Shown: piece by piece, positions 51,387-62,194 of the stretch | Position numbering within the stretch: the stretch's first letter is position 1 | How the letters are laid out: each line of letters begins with the position of its first letter | Source of the DNA: Dehalococcoidia bacterium | GTDB lineage: Bacteria > Chloroflexota > Dehalococcoidia > Lucifugimonadales > UBA3495 | Reading direction: 5' to 3' | NCBI GenBank assembly: GCA_965207275.1 | Contig: CBDBMH010000002.1 | Span: forward strand, 465,291-529,290 | Length of the DNA: 64,000 bases | Position numbers and translations under genes: made by a program | Notes under the pieces: model-generated | What the model saw: the letters and a program-made list of their open reading frames with translations, nothing else | The model's database searches: none | Told to the model about the DNA's origin: nothing

Positions 51387-51609
51387 AACCCAAATAATCT
51401 TTTATTCCCATGCTTGCCCTAGTATAATTAGCCACAGGCATCATTCATCCTTCCCATCATTCATAAAGCTATGATTTCGTTCAGGCTTGCCCCTTGAAAA
51501 TCATCCTTCCACGCTTCTTCGGTAACTATGTAACTGCCAGGTTCCAGGCGCCGCCCCACCGCCGGTGATCGCCCGCCAGCCTGGAACCGCAAACCGGGAG
51601 ACAGGTCCC

Positions 51610-52686
51610 ATGCTCGCCTCGCGACGGCAACCGGCCATTGATCAGCTGCCTTCCCCCTTTCCCGAAGGGTGGTACTTCGTCGCCACCCGCGCCGACATCC
51701 GGCGGAAAGGTCTTCTCAGCAAGGTCTGGATGGGAGAGGACATCATCGTTTGGCGCGACGACCTTGGCGAAATCTGCGTAGCCGAGTCCCATTGTCCCCA
51801 CCTGGGAGCCCACCTGGGCCCCGAGGCCGGTGGCCGGGTCTCCGAAGGTCGCCTGGTATGCCCCTTTCACGGCTACCAGTTCGACATCGGCGGCCGGTGC
51901 GTCGCCACCCCTTATGCCGATCCGCCCCGCAACGCTCTCTTACAGGTCTTCGACACCCGGGAAATCAACGGCCTCATCTTCGCCTGGTACGGAATTGACG
52001 GCCGCCCGCCCCAGTGGGAACTCCACCCCGACCGTCCCCAGGCTGAAGGCTGGTCCCGCCCCGCCGTCCGCACCATCCGCTTCCCCGGCCATCCCCAGGA
52101 AACCACCGAAAACTCGGTGGACCTCGCCCACTTCCGCTACGTCCACGGTTACGACAGCTTCGACCGGGTTGGCCGCATCTCGGTGGACGGCGCCCGGCTG
52201 GAAAGCTGCTTCAACTTCAGGTCCGTTCGGAAGCTGGCCGGTTTCAACCTTTTCTCCCTGGACCTTTCCGCCGTCACCCATATCTTTGGTCTCGGCTACT
52301 CCTTCGTGGAAATTCGCGAGCATTCCATTGGCGTAGACTTGCGGCTGTGGGTCCTGGCCACCCCGGTTGACGGTACCCTTGTAGATGTGACCCTCGTCTC
52401 CCAGGTGAGGGAGATCCGCAGCCCCCGGCGCCGACTTATCGGCCTCGGCTTCCTGCCCGTCGGCTGGCGGGCCCCCATGTTCAACAGGTTTATGGCCGCC
52501 CAGCAGACGGGCGACGTTTTGCAGGACGTCGCTATCTGGAGCCGCAAGCGGTACCGTGTCCGTCCCCGCCTCTGTCGTTCCGATGGCGAGATAATGCCCT
52601 TCCGCGCCTATTGTGCCCAGTTCTATCCCGGACCTCAGGCCCAGTCCAGCATCCCTTCCGAAAGCTCGGACCGGGCCCTGCTATGA
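51610..52686 (+). CDS. Rieske [2Fe-2S] non-heme iron oxygenase (PaO/KshA-like)
   Basis: The Rieske motif is 'CPHLGAHL...CPFHGYQF'. 'EGWYFVA' lies near the N-terminus, and the C-terminal catalytic region includes 'ENSVDLAHFRYVH'. ATG 51610 follows GGGAGA. Confidence 0.8.
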   Translation: MLASRRQPAIDQLPSPFPEGWYFVATRADIRRKGLLSKVWMGEDIIVWRDDLGEICVAESHCPHLGAHLGPEAGGRVSEGRLVCPFHGYQFDIGGRCVATPYADPPRNALLQVFDTREINGLIFAWYGIDGRPPQWELHPDRPQAEGWSRPAVRTIRFPGHPQETTENSVDLAHFRYVHGYDSFDRVGRISVDGARLESCFNFRSVRKLAGFNLFSLDLSAVTHIFGLGYSFVEIREHSIGVDLRLWVLATPVDGTLVDVTLVSQVREIRSPRRRLIGLGFLPVGWRAPMFNRFMAAQQTGDVLQDVAIWSRKRYRVRPRLCRSDGEIMPFRAYCAQFYPGPQAQSSIPSESSDRALL

Positions 52687-52774: not shown

Positions 52775-54664
52775 CCCAAATCCACCACCTAATGGGAGAA
52801 AAATGGTTTTGGGGCTCCTTGATTGGGCCGGTTGGGGCATCGGCTGACGGCTGACAGGTTGGCAGTGGGTTGGCGTGGCAGGAGTAGGCGCTGGAAGGGG
52901 ATATTGGGGCGTTGGCCGGCGACGCCAGGGCGAGGTCTATGCCAACCGGTCCTGGAGAAGGGCGCAGTGTCCCTACGGCGGGAGTCCCCGTCGCTTGAAT
53001 GCCCGTCGGTAGTGGCGCAGACCGTCCCAGGTCAGGGTGGGCCGTGGGCCAGCGCCGCTATTCTCCGGTGCGCTCCCGCCAGCAGCGGGAAGGATGGATG
53101 GCCCCGGGCCAGCCGGATCAGCAGCTTCCTGGCGTGGCAGACCACCCGTCCGGCCAGATTGATCAGAGCAAAGCGCACCGCCTTGAGCCGCTTGTTCACC
53201 CACTGACCGCCCAGGGCCAACTGCTTGACCGCCGAGTTCAGGTTGAACGCCAGCGCCGCTATCGCCCACCAGGCCGCGTTGGCCCCGAACTGTCCCGACG
53301 GCAGCCTCCCGCCAGCCAAGTCCTCCTTCAGCACACCATGCACCTCCTCGCCCTTCCCGCATCTCTCCCGGTACCACCGCACCACCTCATCTCCCGGTAG
53401 CTCCCGGTTAGTCACTATCCCCCGGATCTTGTACCAGCCCCGGTCCGGCATCTCCATCGCCGGAACCGACAACTCCAGGTCATCCTCCATGCCCGGCAGC
53501 GGCGGCCGCCTCAGCGGCTCCCGGACCGCTATGAAACGGTAGTCGGGATCATTCTTGGAATAAGCCAATCTATCGGGCACGAAGTCCACCTCGGCCCACT
53601 CCTGTTCCGTCTCCACCGCCAACTCCCCCACCATCCGGGGCAACCGGCGCCACTGGCTCTCCTCCACTTCGGCTGCCGCACGCTTGAACCCCTCCGTGAC
53701 GTCCGCCCCCACCGCGAATTCGATCACTCCGAACCGCTCATCCCTCCCCTCGGCGCAGTACCGCAACAACTCAACTTGGTACCCCGCCGTGTCCGACCGC
53801 AGCATCACCTTCACCACGCCCTCCGGCAGATGGGCCAGCGACTCCCGCAACACCCGCAGTTGCTCGAACCCCGCTGGCACGTTGCCGTCCCGGAACTCCG
53901 AATGGACCACCAGGTCCGCCTCGGCCCAGTAGGTGACCATCGGCTGGTAGGCCTTGTAGCCCTGGTAGCAGTACAGCGCCTCCTGCTTGTAGGTCTCGAT
54001 CAGCGTCGCGTCCATGTCCAGCGTCGCCTGCTCCTGCTCCAGGTGGTCCCGGACGAAGCTCATCATCTCGGCGTTGACCTTCCCCAGCCCGCGCAGCGCG
54101 CCGCTGGGCGCGGGTATGTACGCCGTATGGGGCTGCCTGGCCTCCTCCTGAACCGGGTCGTGGAACCGGCCCAGGTACCGGAACACCGCCGACGGAGACG
54201 GGACGCTGCGGCGCCGCCCGCCCCGCCACCGGCTGCCCTCCTCCCGGCGCTCACAAGCCCGCTGCCGGTGCGTCTCCACCCGGCCCAACATCCGGCCCAG
54301 ACCCTCGTCCCCTTCCAGCACCCGGAGGTCGTCCACTCCTTCTCCACCGGCCAGATTCAGCAGCACCAGCGCGGTGACCATCTGCCGGTCCGTCCATCCC
54401 TGTCCGCCCTCCTTGACCTTCACGTAGCGCCGGATCGACTCGCCCAGCCCCATCGCATCGGCCATTTCCAGATAGACCGCCAACCCCGACAGCCCCGTCA
54501 TGCCCCCCGCGCGATGCTCCGTCCCATACTGGAATGGCAGGACTCCCTGTTGCATAATGACTGCACCTCGTTGGTGATGGTTGTGTTTGTCCCGTAACCA
54601 TCATAGCCAGCTTTGCCGCTGGCTCCAACGAGGTCTTTTCCTCCCATTAGGTGGTGGATTTGGG
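52775..54664 (-). mobile_element. IS1380-family insertion sequence (1890 bp)
   Basis: 24-bp perfect terminal IRs: CCCAAATCCACCACCTAATGGGAG at 52775-52798 and its reverse complement at 54641-54664. It is flanked by the 5-bp direct repeat TACAC (52770-52774 and 54665-54669). It has a single transposase ORF. Confidence 0.9.
53032..54555 (-). CDS. IS1380-family DDE transposase
   Basis: 507-aa ORF with N-terminus 'MQQGVLPFQYGTEHRAGGMTGLSGLAVYLE' and 'LDMDATLIETYKQEALYCYQGYKAYQP', typical of IS1380 transposases. Confidence 0.85.
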   Translation of the reverse strand: MQQGVLPFQYGTEHRAGGMTGLSGLAVYLEMADAMGLGESIRRYVKVKEGGQGWTDRQMVTALVLLNLAGGEGVDDLRVLEGDEGLGRMLGRVETHRQRACERREEGSRWRGGRRRSVPSPSAVFRYLGRFHDPVQEEARQPHTAYIPAPSGALRGLGKVNAEMMSFVRDHLEQEQATLDMDATLIETYKQEALYCYQGYKAYQPMVTYWAEADLVVHSEFRDGNVPAGFEQLRVLRESLAHLPEGVVKVMLRSDTAGYQVELLRYCAEGRDERFGVIEFAVGADVTEGFKRAAAEVEESQWRRLPRMVGELAVETEQEWAEVDFVPDRLAYSKNDPDYRFIAVREPLRRPPLPGMEDDLELSVPAMEMPDRGWYKIRGIVTNRELPGDEVVRWYRERCGKGEEVHGVLKEDLAGGRLPSGQFGANAAWWAIAALAFNLNSAVKQLALGGQWVNKRLKAVRFALINLAGRVVCHARKLLIRLARGHPSFPLLAGAHRRIAALAHGPP

Positions 54665-54832: not shown

Positions 54833-57310
54833 TTGGACCGAACACTCACTTTCCTCGCCCGGCTGGTTACGGCCCGCCCCTGGCTGACCCTTCTGGCCCT
54901 CCTGGTCGTTACCGTCGCACTGGGCTATGGCGCCGTTCACCGCGCTCCCCCGCCGGAAACCAGGGCCACCCTGCCCCAGGGCAGCGCCGTCGCCGAGGCG
55001 TTGCACGATATAGAAGATCTATTTACTGAAACCGGCGAAGCCAGCGTCGTAACCCTTCTCTTCCGGGGCAACGCCCTCACCCCCGCCGGCCTTGCCCAGA
55101 TGGACTCCCTGGTCGCCGAAATCGCCGCCGAACCCAGCGTGGCCGAACTGTTGGCGCCGGGCGACCCGGTCATAGCCCCTTCCCATCTGGTCATGGCCCT
55201 GCTCCAGGTCCCCAACTTTGATTCCGTCTCCCAGGCCGACATAGACAACCTCCAGGGTCCCCCGGAAATCCTGGGCGCCATCGACGCCATGACCGGTGAA
55301 GATTCCGACGGCACGCCCGTCGCCATCGCCACCATCCGTGTCCTTAATACGGGCGACGACCGCGTCAAGATCGCCGAGCGTCGCATCCTCGCCCTCGCCC
55401 AGGCCGACCAGGGGCCGCTCGAGGTGAGCAGCGTTTCCCGCATCGTAATCGAGGACGAGTACGTTAGGGCCACCGAGGAGGGAATGGCTCCCCTGGTTGG
55501 GCTGGCCTTCCTGCTCATCGCCGCCCTCATCCTCCTCTTCATGCGCACCATCTCCGACCTGCTCCTGACCATCTTCGGTCTGCTCATGTCCATCATCTGG
55601 ATAGTCGGGGCGGAGGGTTGGCTTGGTCCCAACGCCCTCGGCCTCACCGGCCCGCCCAACTCCCTCACTACCATGGTGCCCATCATCATCATTGGCCTGA
55701 CCGTGGACTACGCCATCCAGATAGTCTCCCACTACCGGGAGCAGCGCAACGCCGGCGAGAACGTTCTGTCCGCCGTCCGCGCCGGTTTCCGCAATGTAGC
55801 CGTTCCCCTGGTGTTGGCCGCCATCACTACCATCGTCAGCCTGCTGGCCAGCCTCTTTTCCCCCATCGAAATCGTAGGCGACTTTGGCATCATCGCCGGC
55901 CTGGGCGTGGGAATGAGCCTCATCGTCATGCTGACTTTGGTGCCGGCCGGCCGCACCATCATCGACCGCCGCCGCGAGGCCCGGGGCCGGCTGAACCCGC
56001 CCCGTCCCATTGCCAACGCCCTGCCCGGCGTCAGCGGCCTGGCCGGCCTGCTGGGTCGCAGCATTACCCGCGCTCCGGGACCCTACCTCATTGGGGTGCT
56101 GGTAGTTACCGCCGCCCTGGGATACGCCGCCACCGACCTTGAATCCGAGTTCAGTATCCGCGACATCCTGCCCCGGGGCGGCGACCTGCTGGCCGATATG
56201 AACACCCTCGATGTGTCCGTCGGCGGTTCCACCGAGATGGCCACCGTGCTGCTGAGGGCGGAGGTAACCGAGGCCCGAACCCTCCTGAATATTCAGGACC
56301 TTACCGACGCATTCCTGGACGAACGCCGCCGTCCGGCCGCTGCGGCCGGCCCCATCCAAGCCTCCTTTGACCTCGTGCTGCGGGACTGGGTGGATGACAG
56401 CGGCGCCCCCGGCGACAATTTTGACCCCGACCTGGCGGCCCTCTTCGGGCAGGCCACCGCCGGGGTGCAGGTCGATCCGGTGCTGATGCAGGAATTCATC
56501 GACCGGCTGGAAGCCAGCGACCCCTCGGTAAGGCGCCTGTTGATCAACGACCCCCAGGGCATCGACGTCATGCTGGTCCAGTTCCCCACCTACTCCGGCG
56601 ACCCCGCCCTCACCAAGCTTATCCAGTCCGATATTGAGGGTCTCTGGTTTGGGGATGACGATGCCATCACCGCCACCTCCGAAAGCATCATTTCCGTGAC
56701 CGTTACCGACTCCATCACCGAGCGGCAGACCGAGGCCATCACCACCACCATCCTGGCCGCTCTTACCGTCCTGGCCGTCTTCTTCTGGGTCACCGTGCGC
56801 CAGCCGGCCCTGGCCGTAATCGCCGTGGGCCCCATCGTGCTGGTGTTGATCTCCGTCCTGGGCACCATGGCCCTCCTGGGCATTCCCTATACCATCATCA
56901 CCTCCATCATCACCGCCCTTTCCATCGGCATCGGCGTTGACTACACTATCCACATGATCCACCGCTACCGGGAGGAGTATTCCGTCGAGCGCGACCCGGA
57001 GCAGGCCGCCGTCCGTACCCTGGCCACCACCGGCTCCGCCCTGCTGGGGTCCGCCCTGACCACCGCCCTGGGTCTTGGCGTGCTGGTGGCCTCCCCCCTG
57101 GCCGCGTCCCAGCAGTTCGGCTTTACCGCGGCCATCACCATCGCCTACTCCCTCATAGTCTCCATTCTGGTCGTCCCGGCCGCCATGACCTTCTGGGGCG
57201 CCTACCAGAACATGAAGCTGCGTTCCAACGTCCGGCGTTGGGCCGAGGAACTGGACATGGAGATTGAAGCCGTCCACCGTCGCCACGAGCTTGACTCGGA
57301 AGCAACGTAA
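54833..57310 (+). CDS. MMPL/RND-superfamily lipid exporter (HpnN-like architecture)
   Basis: 825-aa ORF with two blocks of about 6 TM segments, each preceded by a large extracytoplasmic loop. The duplicated motifs are 'GLTVDYAIQIVSHYREQ' and 'GIGVDYTIHMIHRYREE'. The start is TTG. Confidence 0.8.
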   Translation: MDRTLTFLARLVTARPWLTLLALLVVTVALGYGAVHRAPPPETRATLPQGSAVAEALHDIEDLFTETGEASVVTLLFRGNALTPAGLAQMDSLVAEIAAEPSVAELLAPGDPVIAPSHLVMALLQVPNFDSVSQADIDNLQGPPEILGAIDAMTGEDSDGTPVAIATIRVLNTGDDRVKIAERRILALAQADQGPLEVSSVSRIVIEDEYVRATEEGMAPLVGLAFLLIAALILLFMRTISDLLLTIFGLLMSIIWIVGAEGWLGPNALGLTGPPNSLTTMVPIIIIGLTVDYAIQIVSHYREQRNAGENVLSAVRAGFRNVAVPLVLAAITTIVSLLASLFSPIEIVGDFGIIAGLGVGMSLIVMLTLVPAGRTIIDRRREARGRLNPPRPIANALPGVSGLAGLLGRSITRAPGPYLIGVLVVTAALGYAATDLESEFSIRDILPRGGDLLADMNTLDVSVGGSTEMATVLLRAEVTEARTLLNIQDLTDAFLDERRRPAAAAGPIQASFDLVLRDWVDDSGAPGDNFDPDLAALFGQATAGVQVDPVLMQEFIDRLEASDPSVRRLLINDPQGIDVMLVQFPTYSGDPALTKLIQSDIEGLWFGDDDAITATSESIISVTVTDSITERQTEAITTTILAALTVLAVFFWVTVRQPALAVIAVGPIVLVLISVLGTMALLGIPYTIITSIITALSIGIGVDYTIHMIHRYREEYSVERDPEQAAVRTLATTGSALLGSALTTALGLGVLVASPLAASQQFGFTAAITIAYSLIVSILVVPAAMTFWGAYQNMKLRSNVRRWAEELDMEIEAVHRRHELDSEAT

Positions 57311-57322
57311 AAAAGAAACGTT

Positions 57323-58360
57323 ATGCGACTACGTAAACTATCCAGAGGGCTGAAGGACGCGTACCGGGGTTCGGACGCTCGCCCTCGCGTGAAGCGCTTT
57401 GACGGATGGGAGGAAAGGGCGGCGGAGGATAATCCCGACCCGGCCGCCTACGATCATGCCGATACCGTCAAGGAATACTACGACCTCTGCACCGAGTTCA
57501 TGGAGTTTGGTTGGGGCGAAAGCTTGCACTTCGCCCCCCTGTCGCCCGGGGAGAGCCTGGAGGACGCCAAGGTCCGGCACCAGCGGCTGATGATTGCCAG
57601 GCTGGAGTTGCGACCGGGCATGAAGGTGATCGATGTTGGTTGCGGAGTCGGTGGCCCCATGCGTCGCGTCGTTCGGGAGTCCGGCGCCAGCGTCCTGGGG
57701 GTCAATAGCAGCCAGGTCCAGTTGGAGAAGGCTAAATCGCTGAATAATGCCGCCGGGATTGGCCGCCTGGTTGACTATCTCTCCTGCAGCTTCATGGACA
57801 TGGGCGCCATACCGGACAACACCTTCGACCGGGGTTACGCCATCGAGTCCACCTGCCATGCGCCCGACAAGGCCGGAGCATTCGCCGAGATTTATCGTGT
57901 GCTGAAACCCGGGGCCCTGTTCTGGGGCCAGGAAATGTGCCTGACCGATAAGTTCAACCCCAGCGACCGCCGCCACTGCGCCATTAGACGGGACCTGATG
58001 CATGGCATCGCCCTCCAGGACATCGCCACCGGGGACGAGGTGGACCGGACCCTCGAAAGGGTTGGATTTCAAGTCATTGAAGGGAAGGACTTGGCCGCCT
58101 TGGACGGGGAACGGACCACGCCATGGTTTCAGCCCATGGCGACCCGGCGCGGAACGCTGGGCAACGCCATTTACCGCACTCCCCTGGGCCGCAAGCTGCT
58201 GCTGGGGACAGTCAGGCTGTCAGAGGTGCTGGGAATGTTCCCGAAAGGCTCCACAGATGTTGCTGGACTGCTGGACAATACCGCCGAGGCATACGTCGCC
58301 GCTGGCCGGGCCGGCATCTTTACGCCCCTCTACTGTTTCCTGGCCCGCAAACCGGAGTAA
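57323..58360 (+). CDS. sterol 24-C-methyltransferase-like (ERG6/SMT family) SAM-dependent methyltransferase
   Basis: 'VKEYYDLCTEFMEFGWGESLHFAP' (compare SMT region 'YYDLxTDxYEYGWGxSFHF'), SAM motif 'KVIDVGCGVGGPMR', 'AIESTCHAPD', 'IYRVLKPGA', and a C-terminal extension of the kind seen in sterol MTs. Confidence 0.65.
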   Translation: MRLRKLSRGLKDAYRGSDARPRVKRFDGWEERAAEDNPDPAAYDHADTVKEYYDLCTEFMEFGWGESLHFAPLSPGESLEDAKVRHQRLMIARLELRPGMKVIDVGCGVGGPMRRVVRESGASVLGVNSSQVQLEKAKSLNNAAGIGRLVDYLSCSFMDMGAIPDNTFDRGYAIESTCHAPDKAGAFAEIYRVLKPGALFWGQEMCLTDKFNPSDRRHCAIRRDLMHGIALQDIATGDEVDRTLERVGFQVIEGKDLAALDGERTTPWFQPMATRRGTLGNAIYRTPLGRKLLLGTVRLSEVLGMFPKGSTDVAGLLDNTAEAYVAAGRAGIFTPLYCFLARKPE

Positions 58361-58865: not shown

Positions 58866-59522
58866 TCAGCCCTGTTTCTTGAACAGGTACATTGCTGCTG
58901 AGTCGGTAGGTTGAAACCTTGCCCGACTGGGGGATTTGCATAAGTCGGACTCCACCATTGCCAGCGTTAACGATACTCCCCGTGCCGTTTTGAAGTATGA
59001 GGACAATTCAGATTCAGAAGTCGTCATATCGAGGCTTTCGACCTTGAATGCACCCACAAGAAGGAAGTCTGAGTCAACATAGGCGCGGCGAGCGTCATTA
59101 TGGCCGTCATTCACAAGCAGGTTTCCGCCGGAGACAAGGAAACGTTTGCAAGCTTGGGAAATAAGCCCCGCGTTTAAGGATATGAGCAAATCAAAGGATT
59201 CCTCTGGCTCTGCATTAAAGGCGTGATAGTCCTGCTGATAACAGGAAATGTCAGAAGATTCCGGGTATATTTTGTGTCTGGCTACGTACTCCCGTAAGTC
59301 GGTGTCTGCCACCATTTCGGCAATACCGGAGAGGGCATCCACGTAAATGACGTGGGGAAAGAAAATAGAAGGTGTAATATGAACGTAGCTACCGGGATAA
59401 AGAACCTTTCTAACAGCGAATTCCTGGCTTATCTGTGACAGTACAGGATAAAGGTCAACACTGTTGGCAGGATTCGTCCGGTAAGTGGACATATAAATGT
59501 CCAGCGGCCTGATTGACGACAT
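58866..59522 (-). CDS. hypothetical protein (possibly a Rossmann/methyltransferase-like fold)
   Basis: 218-aa ORF in a visibly AT-richer segment. 'KVLYPGSYVH', 'FDLLISLNAG' and 'GGNLLVND' loosely resemble class I MTase motifs I, II and IV. Confidence 0.5.
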   Translation of the reverse strand: MSSIRPLDIYMSTYRTNPANSVDLYPVLSQISQEFAVRKVLYPGSYVHITPSIFFPHVIYVDALSGIAEMVADTDLREYVARHKIYPESSDISCYQQDYHAFNAEPEESFDLLISLNAGLISQACKRFLVSGGNLLVNDGHNDARRAYVDSDFLLVGAFKVESLDMTTSESELSSYFKTARGVSLTLAMVESDLCKSPSRARFQPTDSAAMYLFKKQG

Positions 59523-59768: not shown

Positions 59769-61799
59769 TCACCCGACCAGCTTACGCCGCTTCTCCACCA
59801 CCTGGAACCGCAGTTTCTTGTTCGGCTTCATCGACGGCAGCGGGGCGAACCCCAGCTTGTAGTCCCGGGGATACACGTCGATATTGAAGTAGTGCGCCAC
59901 CATCAACACGTTCACCGCCAGTTGCAGCTCCATCCACCGTGAACCCAGGCACCTGTGCGGCCCCAGCCCGTAGGGAGCGTAACCGGGACTGAAATGCTCG
60001 TTCCTCGGCGGCAAGTACCGGTCAATATCAAACTTGAACGGTTCCGGAAAGGCCTCGCTCATGTAGTGGGACGCCGACTGCGCAATAAACACCCTCGTCC
60101 CCACCGTAAGCTGGTAGTCCTCCACCACGCAGGAATTCATCACGTCCCGTATCGACATGGGGACTATCGGGTACATCCGCAGGCATTCCATCAGGAACCG
60201 GTGCGTCACGTCTATTGCCTCCGGGGTGAAGTCCGCCGGGTCCGGGTCCCCGTTGGCGAACAGCGCATCCGCCTCCTCTTGGATCCGCCGATACAGCTCC
60301 GGCTGCGAAGCCATGGCGTATAGCGCGAACGAATAGGCGTCACCCAGGTAAACGCTGGCAATCAGCGCCGCCGACAGGGCAAAACGAAGGTTTGCCTCGG
60401 GCACCAGCTGTGGGTCGCTGGCGTGCAGGCTTAGAATGTCATCCGCCAGGTCCCGCGGCGCCCCGGCCCGCTGTGCCGGCGTATGCACACCCTGGATCCG
60501 CTCCATGAGTTCATCAATGACCTTGGCACGCGCCTTCATCGCCGGTGTGCTGAGCATGAACTTCGGCAGCACCCTCACGATGTGGGTGTTCAGCGCCCGC
60601 TCCTTGAACTTGATCAGGTCTCCGATGATGTCCTGGGAGTCAACACTCACAAAAATGGGCGAAAGCTGCGCGTTGATCATGTATCGGCACAGCTCCGTCG
60701 CCGGAAAAATCCTCCCCTCCCGCCAGTCCGACATGAAACCCCTTGCCTGCTGGTAGACCTGGTCAATCTGCCCCATCAGCCTGCCCCGGGAATAAGCCGA
60801 CGCCAGCGATTTCCGCAGCCGGAAGTGTTCCCCGCCGTCCAACGAAGGCAACACTCCCGAAGCCCCGTACACCTTCTCGAAATCGCTAAAGTAGTTCCGC
60901 GCCCTCAGGTACATCCGCCCGTTGCGGTTGGCCCAGTGGTTGGTCTCCGGCCCCGCCAGAAACACCATCGGCTTGCTGAAGGGAGGCTTTACTTCAAACA
61001 CCGGCCCGTACTTCTCCGCCAGGTCCGCGAAAACGGCCGGCAGGTTGCCATTCCGAATATTCCGATTTAACGCCAGGTCCCGCAGCGATACCCTGGGTAT
61101 CTGTTTCGTGAACGCCGAATGGCGCATCATCGGCCCCGCCATGTTCACGGACACCGCCTCGGCAATCGACCGTCCGATCAGGTCCATTTGGCAGATGAAG
61201 TTGATCCTCTCCTCGGCGGCGTCATCCAGCTGGAACATAAACCGGAAAACGTCGCAGGTATTGATCAGGCAGATGATGATCACATCCCGCGGATCGGGGA
61301 TCTCGTTATTGAAAATCACCCGGCTCAACCGCGTCTTCACGAACTCCGTGGCGCTGCCTTCCCGCGAGGTTCCACTCCAACCTGCGCTCATGGCATTGGG
61401 TGTCAGCGTCCAGAAATCCCCGTCGTGGTGCTCCAGGATATTCAGCTCCACCAGCCGGTCCAGTGTAAGGTCAATTATCTCCTCGGCCCGGGGCGCCAGC
61501 CGCTCAATCCAGTACTGGGCAGTCCTCTGACCCGCGTCCCCTACTATCTCCGCCAGGATCGGGTCCAGGGCGGGATTCCCCGTGTCCATGGCGTCCACCA
61601 GGTACAGTGAGCGCGTGTCCGTGTCGATACGGTGCTGCAGGGAAAGCTCCGCCAGCGCCGATCCAATAATCGCGCAATTCAGGTCCCACCCGGGCACCTG
61701 GTGAAAGTACCCACTCTCCTCGTTCAGCAGCGCGAGAATTAGCTCCTCGGGCAAATTCAGCTGTTGGCCCACCAGAAATTCGGTATAGGAAGTAGTCAT
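59769..61799 (-). CDS. GPP34 (GOLPH3-like) domain fused to a cytochrome P450
   Basis: The N-terminal ~230 aa read 'LPEELILALLNEESGYFHQVPGWDLNCAIIGSALAELSL', which is GPP34-like. The C-terminal P450 has ExxR 'ECLRMYP', 'PEPFKFDIDRY' and heme loop 'YGLGPHRCLGSRW'. The start is taken at ATG 61799, because the upstream extension is Arg-rich. Confidence 0.75.
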   Translation of the reverse strand: MTTSYTEFLVGQQLNLPEELILALLNEESGYFHQVPGWDLNCAIIGSALAELSLQHRIDTDTRSLYLVDAMDTGNPALDPILAEIVGDAGQRTAQYWIERLAPRAEEIIDLTLDRLVELNILEHHDGDFWTLTPNAMSAGWSGTSREGSATEFVKTRLSRVIFNNEIPDPRDVIIICLINTCDVFRFMFQLDDAAEERINFICQMDLIGRSIAEAVSVNMAGPMMRHSAFTKQIPRVSLRDLALNRNIRNGNLPAVFADLAEKYGPVFEVKPPFSKPMVFLAGPETNHWANRNGRMYLRARNYFSDFEKVYGASGVLPSLDGGEHFRLRKSLASAYSRGRLMGQIDQVYQQARGFMSDWREGRIFPATELCRYMINAQLSPIFVSVDSQDIIGDLIKFKERALNTHIVRVLPKFMLSTPAMKARAKVIDELMERIQGVHTPAQRAGAPRDLADDILSLHASDPQLVPEANLRFALSAALIASVYLGDAYSFALYAMASQPELYRRIQEEADALFANGDPDPADFTPEAIDVTHRFLMECLRMYPIVPMSIRDVMNSCVVEDYQLTVGTRVFIAQSASHYMSEAFPEPFKFDIDRYLPPRNEHFSPGYAPYGLGPHRCLGSRWMELQLAVNVLMVAHYFNIDVYPRDYKLGFAPLPSMKPNKKLRFQVVEKRRKLVG

Positions 61800-62194
61800 G
61801 CCCGGTCTCCCAGCGTCCTCCGGACGCTTCCAATCAACTGTGGTACGCCCCCTCCGGAATGTTCGCCCGTCCCTCACGACGATAGCGGAAGTTCGAGCGC
61901 GTCTGTCAGTAACGCGCCCTTCCTGTCCCACATACCATTTGTGCTTACAATGCTAACCCATGCCAAATCATATTGCAAAGCTATATTCTGTGAAGGAATT
62001 CGCAATCTGGGCCGGATATCTGGGTTCTATTCCGCCGTTGTTCCTCCTACCATGGCCACGCCAATTGCCATCAAGGTGGCCACGGACACTGCCCTCCTTG
62101 ACAACCCGTTCCCCCTCTCTGACAATCACCTCGACCATCCCAACCAAACAGCAAAACAGCCGCCGGGAACATCCGGCGGCCGCAAGGAGTTTTC

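Follow-up and report, generated by a model that had tools for sequence, protein, structure and literature searches.

The window analysed here, the whole stretch of 64,000 nucleotides, holds all four genes of a conserved cassette, the same set of which occurs in most of 74 genome loci: a KshA-like Rieske oxygenase, an MMPL/SSD-type RND transporter, an SMT and a GPP34-P450 fusion. The SMT gene (57323–58360, forward strand; 345 aa from an ATG start) encodes a type-A (cassette-type; 'type A' is a working name) member of the Erg6/SMT family of SAM-dependent C-methyltransferases. Directly ahead of it on the same strand lies the gene for an MMPL/HAE3-type RND transporter with similarity to sterol-sensing domains (54833–57310, 825 aa; Pfam MMPL, Sterol-sensing and Patched), which is HAE3/HpnN-like by NCBIfam and matches MmpL4/5, Patched and HpnN in the PDB. 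As the RND stop codon is 12 nt ahead of the SMT start, the two genes are probably read as a single transcript, and an RND gene lies ≤4.5 kb from the SMT gene in 58/74 genome loci.

The Rieske non-haem-iron oxygenase (51565–52686, forward strand; 373 aa; Pfam Rieske and KshA_C) has 3-ketosteroid 9alpha-hydroxylases as its top PDB matches (2.8e-23, over the N-terminal 170 residues only), and its gene is found near the SMT gene in 55 of the 74 loci. An assignment of this protein as the C-4 demethylase SdmA was rejected, the NCBIfam SdmA model giving 35.8 bits against a cut-off of 600 and covering the Rieske domain only. Convergent with the SMT gene is the fusion of a GPP34 (GOLPH3-like) domain with a cytochrome P450 (59769–61931, reverse strand; up to 720 aa; Pfam GPP34 and p450), which lies ≤4.5 kb from the SMT gene in 63/74 loci. 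Its P450 part has an uncharacterised P450 as top match in the PDB, with CYP51 structures among many at ∼1e-17; these matches do not mark it out as a CYP51. The 'long form' of GPP34-P450 has been reported to be exclusive to sponge symbionts (PMC11706023).

Two insertions split the cassette in this genome. Between the Rieske and RND genes sits an IS1380-family insertion sequence (52775–54664, reverse strand; transposase at 53032–54555, Pfam DDE_Tnp_1_4) with 29-nt inverted repeats; the genome carries 37 near-identical copies, this one included. The element is missing from the Rieske-RND gap of the relatives examined (in locus L005, for example, the gap is 317 bp), lies 170 bp upstream of the RND gene and may have cut the RND-SMT pair from its promoter. 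The other is a one-gene insert between SMT and P450, outside the conserved cassette, consisting of a 218-aa ORF (58866–59522, reverse strand) that has no Pfam or NCBIfam match, is single-copy in the genome and was matched in no fetched locus except the window's own; its GC content is 0.55, compared with 0.64 in the flanking regions.

The SMT protein and its likeness to Erg6

The SMT ORF matches Pfam Methyltransf_11 (E 1.7e-17) and Sterol_MT_C (E 3.4e-16; 59.5 bits, with a gathering cut-off of 21.7). The latter domain (PF08498; 58175–58357, forward strand; residues 285–345; 62.8 bits in the whole-genome scan) bears out the suggestion of an earlier note on this DNA that the protein carries a C-terminal extension of the sterol methyltransferase type, and a profile scan of the 4.3-Mb genome found Sterol_MT_C in two places only. 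Alignment to Erg6 locates the four SMT regions, all on the forward strand: Region I, YYDLCTEFMEFGWGESLHFAP (57476–57538, residues 52–72); Region II, the SAM-binding loop VIDVGCGVGGP (57626–57658, residues 102–112); Region III, YAIESTCHAPD (57836–57868), in which E175 corresponds to yeast E195 and A196 is replaced by S; and Region IV, IYRVLKPGALFWGQEM (57890–57937), which keeps G217 and has the clade-specific L219, W221, G222, Q223 and M225. In Region II, D104, G106, G108, G111 and P112 equal yeast D125, G127, G129, G132 and P133; the DxGxGxxGP loop and, by the Methyltransf_11 match, the class I SAM methyltransferase domain are present; C-terminally, G333, L341, G352, F357 and P359 (yeast numbering) are all found. 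The segments that the earlier note had quoted (a Region I stretch, VIDVGCGVGGP, ESTCHAPD at residues 175–182 and IYRVLKPG at residues 190–197) indeed occur in the ORF in the order claimed. The co-occurrence of four SMT motifs and the Pfam domains in one ORF is far beyond chance.

The close parallel that had been drawn between Region I and that of SMTs holds in part. G84, W85, G86, H90 and F91 (yeast numbering) are kept, while M81, F83 and L89 differ; the segment reads MEFGWGESLHF and is, on account of M81 and L89, not fully canonical. Functional SMTs have (Y/F)E(Y/F)GWGxxFHF in this place (Brown & Welander 2025), and the combination of GWGxxFHF with aromatic residues at both 81 and 83 is absent from the window SMT.

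For comparison with yeast Erg6 we used a query sequence of which 31 numbered positions were checked against Brown & Welander 2025. The window SMT is 36% identical to it over 337 aligned positions. When Erg6 was run against the genome by tblastn, a paralogue scored 230 bits and the window SMT 194 bits, the next match reaching 66 bits; a tree united Erg6, the window SMT and the paralogue, with 100/100 support, to the exclusion of two other methyltransferases of the genome. The earlier note had called the gene a bacterial ERG6/SMT homologue, and these data agree: of the two outcomes it had set as refuting this, neither the lack of a Sterol_MT_C match nor best reciprocal matches to non-sterol methyltransferases was observed. 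The paralogue, a second SMT of the genome (type B, at C2:1281952-1282989), has the canonical YEYGWGRSFHF and G249, and the stems of the two types in the tree measure 1.39 (type A) versus 0.62 (type B) substitutions per site. Both the window SMT and its paralogue are small, soluble-type proteins. Judged by sequence, the window gene is a real relative of Erg6, from a subclade that has diverged and whose sterol pocket is remodelled.

An AF2 model of the SMT (pLDDT 82.4, pTM 0.83) has among its closest solved folds the olefin C-methyltransferases TleD, GPP C-methyltransferase, BezA and CFA synthase. A sequence search of the PDB found no solved SMT structure; 6f5z, annotated as '24-sterol C-methyltransferase', was a weak match (1.8e-5).

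The type-A clade: pocket, constraint and distribution

Tree and alignment place the window SMT in a long-stemmed clade, type A, rather than among canonical SMTs. Its near-invariant pocket changes are Y81M, F89L, T219L, Y223Q, W225M and I at 249; M81 is present in 119/120 and L89 in 120/120 cluster representatives, and M81, L89, L219, W221, Q223, M225 and I249 are all invariant or nearly so, as are, in 120 of 120 representatives, the SAM-binding and catalytic positions. Both type-A signature motifs (GW[GS]xSLHF and KPGALFWGQEM) occur in most of 141 locus-derived sequences, the second in 128 of them and down to 54% identity. The median dN/dS is 0.22 (2300 pairs), and type-A SMTs are under purifying selection.

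The SMTs that act on desmosterol or 24-methylenecholesterol have 25 residues in common, of which the window SMT shows 24, the exception being F89, which is Leu. F89 is kept in all functional SMTs, and departures from the conserved residues have been read as a sign of non-function (Brown & Welander 2025). A published docking model puts the sterol side chain between residues 81 and 249, and in published mutagenesis a bulky residue at 249, or Leu in place of the Region I aromatics, blocked further methylations; by that precedent Y81M, F89L, Y223Q, W225M and Ile249 would allow at most one methylation. The type-A changes probably alter substrate or regiochemistry as well. We found no assay of any type-A enzyme. 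The contigs of Supplementary Table 4 of Brown 2023 are not among our 65 type-A metagenome loci, and the JGI-derived homologues P0011, P0002, P0196 and P0124 are on contigs other than these.

Relatives occur in 534 species genomes, mostly of Dehalococcoidia/SAR202. The 65 metagenome matches all carry LXNJ, LXNI, MKWU, JGIcombinedJ30088, JGI24796 or Ga0209xxx accessions, of which LXNJ, LXNI, JGIcombinedJ30088 and Ga0209021 are sponge metagenomes in Brown 2023 (PMC10070321) and MKWU appears in two papers on sponge metagenomes; we infer that the remaining series are sponge-derived too. With the accession series thus partly traced in papers and partly assigned, type A appears to be restricted to sponge-associated bacteria.

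The window's genome (97% complete, 2 contigs) gave no match for oxidosqualene cyclase (OSC), squalene-hopene cyclase or squalene epoxidase (PF13243, PF13249, PF08491, TIGR03463), and it has HpnC, HpnD and HpnE above the NCBIfam equivalog cut-offs. Outside the window's cassette it also encodes an ERG4_ERG24 homologue (124.9 bits; PDB match to a delta14-sterol reductase, 1.3e-35). Such a reductase directly adjoins the cassette in three other genomes (G013, G070 and G106), and 59 of its 61 carriers are SMT-positive (odds ratio 179, without phylogenetic correction). A true OSC, with the VTDCTAE motif, was found in 4/301 genomes of the order, all four of them SMT-positive, and we rejected ERG4/24 as a member of a de novo cluster in the order for this rarity. 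OSC is absent from 89 of the 93 SMT-positive genomes. Squalene-hopene cyclase is present in 61/93, and the other 32, including the window's genome and its genus, have no cyclase at all; dependence of the SMT on hopanoid synthesis was rejected on this ground, and hopanoids are not a general endogenous substrate. Where genomes of the order have no cyclase, 26/32 SMT-positive ones carry HpnE versus 35/109 SMT-negative ones, a suggestive comparison for which only 5 candidates per genome were scored and which genome size confounds.

A proposed role and its alternatives

The reading we favour, with somewhat better than even confidence, is that the SMT is an active SAM-dependent olefin C-methyltransferase that adds one carbon to the side chain of an exogenous sterol as part of a tailoring cassette. 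Given the lack of de novo sterol genes and the nature of the cassette partners, the most likely role is to tailor sterols supplied by the sponge host or by what it feeds on, the enzyme most likely methylating sterols or sterol-like lipids from outside the cell. With neither cyclase nor epoxidase in the genome, C-24 regiochemistry and a sterol substrate are both presumed, and we likewise infer the external origin of the substrate, the order of steps, the single methylation and the export. In the scheme we propose, SAM would sit in the DVGCGVGGP loop, and an isoprenoid tail bearing a C=C bond would enter a pocket that Regions I, III and IV build together with the C-terminal helices; a methyl group would be added to the double bond, and the resulting carbocation quenched by deprotonation, putatively through H69 and E175 (yeast H90 and E195). 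The Rieske oxygenase and the P450 might make the substrate ready or modify it further, the SMT would add its single carbon, the ERG4/ERG24-type reductase could saturate the new olefin and the RND protein would then extract the lipid from the cytoplasmic membrane. Several points count against this reading: (i) the known bacterial RND/MMPL proteins export lipids and do not import them, which leaves host-sterol uptake unaccounted for; (ii) HpnC, HpnD and HpnE make an endogenous acyclic triterpene available as an alternative substrate, and 61 of the 93 SMT-positive relatives have a squalene-hopene cyclase; (iii) L89 departs from a residue found in every SMT proven to work on desmosterol or 24-methylenecholesterol; (iv) the IS element may have separated the RND-SMT pair from its promoter.

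The second point leads to an unlikely alternative, in which the SMT methylates a non-sterol triterpenoid (the cell's own HpnCDE-derived squalene, or a hopene such as diploptene at its isopropenyl group) and the HpnN-like RND protein exports the product. The presence of the three Hpn enzymes although the genome has no cyclase, the higher frequency of HpnE in SMT-positive cyclase-less genomes (subject to the effect of genome size), the resemblance of the RND protein to HpnN and the replacement in type A of the pocket aromatics that stabilize the sterol cation would all fit, and SMT-like squalene methyltransferases are reported to exist (Niehaus et al. 2012). What weighs against it is that HpnE was not seen in 6 of the 32 cyclase-less SMT-positive genomes, that the partners (KshA_C, ERG4/ERG24 and the sterol-sensing domain) are known from steroid chemistry, and that a substrate which any SAR202 can make leaves the sponge restriction unaccounted for. 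That SAR202 bacteria are known to oxidize recalcitrant organic matter, and that the nearest solved relatives of the Rieske protein are 3-ketosteroid 9alpha-hydroxylases, could be taken to indicate a cassette for steroid uptake and degradation, with KshA-like ring hydroxylation, side-chain oxidation by the P450 and an accessory or detoxifying SMT. We consider this very unlikely, as the KshA similarity is limited to the N-terminal stretch noted above, the cassette shows no gene for KstD, Hsa or beta-oxidation at any of ∼140 loci, methylation and ERG4/24-type reduction are biosynthetic decorations, and RND/MMPL proteins are exporters.

The loss of F89, a residue common to all functional SMTs, and the disruption of the cassette in the window's genome by an IS element and a foreign gene would fit a catalytically dead or decaying relic; an intact reading frame with dN/dS of about 0.22, SAM-binding, catalytic and clade-specific residues that are (near-)invariant in 120 representatives, signature motifs in most of the locus-derived sequences and synteny kept across hundreds of species genomes make that highly improbable. 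Finally, an ordinary C-24 SMT in a de novo bacterial sterol pathway, akin to the clusters of Brown et al. 2023 and Kelly et al. 2022, is barely credible here: some sponge Dehalococcoidia do have clusters of this kind (PMC9531527) and the four OSC genomes of the order are all SMT-positive, but the window's nearly complete genome, having no OSC, squalene-hopene cyclase or squalene epoxidase, contradicts this, nearly all SMT-positive genomes are equally without OSC, and the pocket is unlike that of every SMT proven functional.

If the favoured reading is right and the enzyme acts on host sterols, symbionts with no sterol synthesis of their own would nevertheless have a hand in the sponge sterol pool, surveys of 'SMT' presence in metagenomes would over- or mis-count the capacity for C-24 alkylation, and the GPP34-P450 proteins would have to be reinterpreted in metabolic terms. 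Whatever its substrate, type A is a large and strongly conserved branch of the SMT family, found mostly in genomes without a sterol cyclase, and it usually adjoins a P450 fusion, one regarded in the literature as an unrelated 'symbiosis factor'. A bolder extension, which we hold to be quite unlikely, is that type-A SMTs alkylate a position or olefin left untouched by canonical SMTs, symbionts without sterol synthesis re-tailoring host sterols through the P450-GPP34, Rieske, ERG4-like and RND proteins and handing them back. The methyl group might, for example, go to C-26/C-27 of a delta25(27) sterol, with (epi)codisterol giving aplysterol- or 26-methyl-type side chains, or the enzyme might close a cyclopropane ring like that of petrosterol-type sterols. 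Side-chain-alkylated steranes (24-isopropylcholestane, 26-methylstigmastane) serve as the earliest chemical evidence of animals, and the makers of their precursors in sponges are disputed; were this unconventional alkylation true, symbionts would account for part of the 'demosponge' sterane signal (26-methylstigmastane and related compounds).

Comparison with known systems

Akin to Erg6 and plant SMT1/SMT2, the window SMT combines Methyltransf_11 with Sterol_MT_C in a protein of the same length class and the same Region I–IV order, and it has the Erg6 residues H90, D125, G127, G129, P133, E195 and G217. It departs from them at side-chain-lining positions (M81, F83, L89, S196, L219, W221, G222, Q223, M225 and I249), is shorter by ∼40 N-terminal residues and, unlike them, is encoded in a genome without sterol synthesis. 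For SMTs from uncultured bacteria and sponge symbionts, methylation, ethylation or propylation of desmosterol and 24-methylenecholesterol has been demonstrated (PMC10070321; Brown & Welander 2025 preprint), and these enzymes share with the window SMT the family, the bacterial origin and the habitat (Aplysina, Petrosia and Sarcotragus metagenomes). The functional ones resemble the type-B SMT of our genome, with canonical Region I and G249, whereas type A has L89 throughout; 13 of Brown's 24 SMTs are linked to an OSC, which the window's genome does not have, and the Brown papers describe sdmA and sdmB in their clusters and name no GPP34, RND, MMPL or Rieske gene.

The RND protein of the window partially matches the hopanoid transporter HpnN and the sterol transporter BstA, reaching 116 of 752 bits and 29 of 1400 bits of the respective equivalog cut-offs, and no BstB or BstC partners were seen. 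In Botryococcus braunii, the SMT-like TMT-1/2/3 act on squalene and botryococcene. They offer a likeness, by description and not by sequence, in their non-sterol isoprenoid olefin substrate, the window's genome being able to make squalene; unlike the window SMT, they are not known to be part of an oxygenase or RND cassette. Coxiella burnetii reportedly has a delta24 sterol reductase (Gilk et al. 2010), a sterol-modifying enzyme in a bacterium that makes no sterols. Like the bacterium studied here, with its own such reductase, Coxiella is a host-associated, cyclase-less organism with ERG4/ERG24-family enzymes, there acting on host sterols; it is not known to have an SMT, P450-GPP34 or RND cassette and lives intracellularly in vertebrate cells as opposed to extracellularly in the sponge mesohyl. 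Lastly, the long form of GPP34-P450 described in PMC11706023 has the exact architecture of the window gene at 59769–61931. Interference with the host phagosome is proposed there, with no mention of sterols or methyltransferases, whereas the fusion appears here as a putative member of a lipid-tailoring cassette.

An intact SMT-family gene and its paralogue

The open reading frame at 57323-58360 on the forward strand is intact and encodes 345 residues, and its translation contains, in SMT order, all four of the sequence strings on which the earlier note had based its proposal of an ERG6/SMT homologue. Pfam searches identified a class I SAM methyltransferase domain (Methyltransf_11, residues 103-200, E = 1.7e-17) followed by the family-specific Sterol_MT_C domain (residues 285-345, E = 3.4e-16, 59.5 bits compared to a cut-off of 21.7), and no NCBIfam model reached its own cut-off. 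When the whole genome was searched with yeast Erg6 by tblastn, one gene scored 230 bits and the window SMT 194 bits, compared to 66 bits for the next methyltransferase; neither a missing Sterol_MT_C match nor a closer affinity to non-sterol methyltransferases, which the earlier note had named as grounds for abandoning the homology, was therefore found, and membership of the Erg6/SMT family is secure. The Erg6 sequence used as yardstick agrees in letter at 31 of the 31 residues numbered by Brown and Welander (2025 preprint); the window SMT shares 36% identity with it over 337 aligned positions. The top PDB sequence matches were RebM and MitM-type methyltransferases, with no solved SMT structure among them, SMTs being without any solved structure (Brown and Welander). 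An alignment of 85 sequences gave a confident AlphaFold2 model (pLDDT 82.4, pTM 0.83), and the solved folds nearest to it were small-molecule methyltransferases, including the olefin C-methyltransferases TleD, GPP C-methyltransferase, BezA, C6-FPP methyltransferase and CFA synthase. These fold neighbours fit the cation mechanism and are uninformative on the substrate.

The genome (4.30 Mb, two contigs, 97% complete) encodes exactly two Sterol_MT_C proteins, the window SMT (type A) and a 345-residue paralogue (type B, locus L001; C2:1281952-1282989, reverse strand) with which it shares 40% identity. Database relatives number more than 2,700 for each, the best 120 being 67-84% identical to the query, and several long contigs bear both types together. 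Maximum-likelihood analysis united Erg6 with types A and B at full support (100/100), separate from two other methyltransferases that the genome encodes, and placed the two types on stems of 1.39 (type A) and 0.62 (type B) substitutions per site. The type-B protein has the Region I sequence YEYGWGRSFHF and a glycine at position 249 (yeast Erg6 numbering here and below), the published features of a ‘propylation candidate’, and carries a serine in place of the essential P133. Encoded away from the cassette described below, next to a Phosphodiest/sulfatase-like and an amine-oxidase-like gene, it is canonical-looking as judged from its residues.

The side-chain pocket of type-A SMTs

Residues were counted in 120 cluster representatives of each type. 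In type A all SAM-binding and catalytic residues are retained (H90, D125, G127, G129, P133, E195, G217 and the C-terminal G333, G352, F357 and P359), and near-invariant substitutions are found at positions that line the sterol side chain: Y81M (119/120), Y83F, F89L (120/120), A196S, T219L, A221W, V222G, Y223Q and W225M, with isoleucine at position 249 in all 120. Type B retains the canonical residues F or Y at 81, F89 and Y223, and 118 of 120 representatives have Gly249. Most of 141 locus-derived type-A sequences, down to 54% identity, contain the motifs GW[GS]xSLHF and KPGALFWGQEM. According to Brown and Welander, 25 residues, F89 included, are common to all SMTs active on desmosterol or 24-methylenecholesterol, their docking model places the sterol side chain between residues 81 and 249, a bulky residue at 249 restricts the enzyme to one methylation, and substituting leucine for aromatics of Region I leaves soybean SMT1 unable to perform the second methylation. 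Type A thus has 24 of the 25 residues conserved in functional SMTs, and the changes in its pocket fall on the very positions that decide substrate and product.

A conserved cassette and its distribution

Upstream of the SMT, with 12 nt between its stop codon and the SMT start, lies the gene for an 825-residue MMPL/HAE3-type RND transporter with similarity to sterol-sensing-domain proteins, Patched and HpnN, itself preceded by a KshA-like Rieske oxygenase whose top solved relatives are 3-ketosteroid 9alpha-hydroxylases (2.8e-23). Identity of the Rieske protein with SdmA was ruled out (35.8 bits, cut-off 600). Downstream, and convergent with the SMT, a GPP34-cytochrome P450 fusion is encoded at 59769-61931 on the reverse strand. 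Its P450 part has no close characterised relative: the top PDB match is an uncharacterised P450 (1.7e-21), with CYP51 entries no better than about 1e-17 amid CYP102, CYP3A and taxadiene hydroxylase matches. In its I-helix region (…IASVYLGDAYSFALY…) the usual acid-alcohol pair is absent, as judged by eye from the translation. A stand-alone short-form GPP34 gene lies at C2:979865-980455 (reverse strand, 158.6 bits).

Two insertions interrupt the cassette, both missing from the closest relative (L005, 80-94% protein identity). An IS1380-family element of 1,890 bp with 29-nt inverted repeats (52775-54664) separates the Rieske and RND genes, and a 218-residue reading frame (58866-59522, reverse strand) occupies a stretch of lower GC (0.55 compared to 0.64) between the SMT and P450 genes; this reading frame drew no match in Pfam or NCBIfam, occurs once in the genome and, among the fetched loci, was matched solely in the window's own. 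The IS1380-family element is present in the 4.3-Mb genome in 37 full-length copies of 99.9-100% identity, several as tandem pairs or triplets, which is a recent expansion and may account both for a genome about 1 Mb larger than those of genus relatives and for the scattering of its sterol-type genes.

The set of four genes is conserved. A scan with one genome per species recovered relatives in 534 genomes, the best 80 being MAGs of Dehalococcoidia, SAR202 or Chloroflexota almost throughout, with a few labelled Acidimicrobiia or Alphaproteobacteria. Among the 74 loci with sufficient flank, the P450 fusion (63/74), the RND transporter (58/74) and the Rieske oxygenase (55/74) lay within 4.5 kb of the SMT. 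Type-A SMTs of 69-71% identity also occur in MAGs labelled Alphaproteobacteria, Candidatus Poriferisocius (Acidimicrobiia) and Acidimicrobiales (L033, L046, L062), which suggests inter-phylum transfer among sponge symbionts, or binning errors. All 65 loci of a metagenome scan fell on LXNJ, LXNI, MKWU, JGIcombinedJ30088, JGI24796 or Ga0209xxx records, and habitat labels of some MAGs and metagenome records were inferred from isolate names and accession series. LXNJ is Petrosia ficiformis, LXNI Sarcotragus foetidus, and JGIcombinedJ30088 and Ga0209021 are Aplysina aerophoba (Brown 2023, PMC10070321); MKWU is cited by two papers on Mediterranean sponge metagenomes, and we infer that the other Ga0209xxx and the JGI24796 records belong to the same kind of project.

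Substrate supply and interpretation

Models for both domains of the SQHop/oxidosqualene cyclase, for squalene epoxidase and for OSC gave no match in the 97%-complete genome. Of the 301 genomes surveyed in this order, 93 are SMT-positive and the C-domain model of the cyclases finds 165 (E <= 0.001), of which 160 were counted in the cross-tabulation (five weak matches were left out). The SHC-type DxDDTA motif is present in three of the four cyclase loci that were fetched; true OSCs (700-730 bits, VTDCTAE motif) occur in only four genomes of the order, all SMT-positive, and 89 of the 93 SMT-positive genomes are therefore without OSC, 32 of the 93 having no cyclase at all. HpnC, HpnD and HpnE (C1:730645-734073) all exceed NCBIfam equivalog cut-offs, so squalene is probably synthesised in this genome; among cyclase-less genomes of the order, HpnE was found in 26 of 32 SMT-positive compared to 35 of 109 SMT-negative ones. 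The genome also encodes a 384-residue homologue of ERG4/ERG24-family sterol reductases (C1:349198-350352, 124.9 bits), with a match at 1.3e-35 to the solved delta14-sterol reductase 4quv. Of the 61 genomes of the order with such a reductase, 59 are SMT-positive (odds ratio 179, Fisher p 1e-35, shared ancestry ignored here as in the HpnE comparison). The reductase directly adjoins the cassette in three of them (G013, G070, G106; order Rieske, RND, SMT, P450-GPP34, reductase), lies 3 kb from it in G286, and sits between the type-B SMT and the RND gene in G194 and G256; in the window's genome cassette and reductase have become separated, and another copy of the IS1380-family element is found 1.9 kb from the reductase.

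The most economical reading is that sponge-associated SAR202 bacteria are unable to synthesise sterols themselves, yet carry a tailoring set for acquired ones; C-24 methylation of a sterol by the window SMT is putative. The two oxygenases (Rieske and P450) would prepare or decorate the acquired sterol, the type-A SMT would add one carbon at a side-chain olefin, the ERG4-like reductase would saturate the methylated product, and the SSD-type RND protein would remove the lipid from the cytoplasmic membrane. The main rival is that the substrate is an endogenous squalene-derived compound or an exogenous hopanoid. HpnCDE, the HpnN-like pump and the missing aromatics of the type-A pocket all agree with this reading, which we consider rather improbable. 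A de novo sterol pathway is unlikely in a genome with no cyclase or epoxidase match, as is a use of the cassette, with its KshA-like oxygenase, in steroid catabolism. A dead SMT is unlikely too: dN/dS among type-A genes is low (median 0.22, 5-95% range 0.15-0.33, 2,300 pairs), and type A is not in decay.

Bacterial SMTs as such are already known. The GPP34-P450 ‘long form’ has been reported as confined to sponge symbionts, with interference with phagocytosis as the proposed role, in a paper that mentions neither sterols nor methyltransferases (PMC11706023); the SMT papers (Brown 2023, PMC10070321; Brown and Welander) mention neither GPP34 nor RND/MMPL transporters. In Ircinia MAGs, some Dehalococcoidia among them, Kelly et al. 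(2022, PMC9531527) reported ERG6 and ERG24 enrichment as well as OSC-containing clusters. The combination of a remodelled SMT clade, a fixed partnership with GPP34-P450, Rieske and RND (in part also ERG4/24) and OSC-less genomes was not found in the searchable literature. New here are the order-wide cross-tabulations of OSC, SHC and ERG4/24, the physical linkage of the reductase to the cassette, HpnCDE without a cyclase, and the IS expansion that may have scattered the set in the window's genome.
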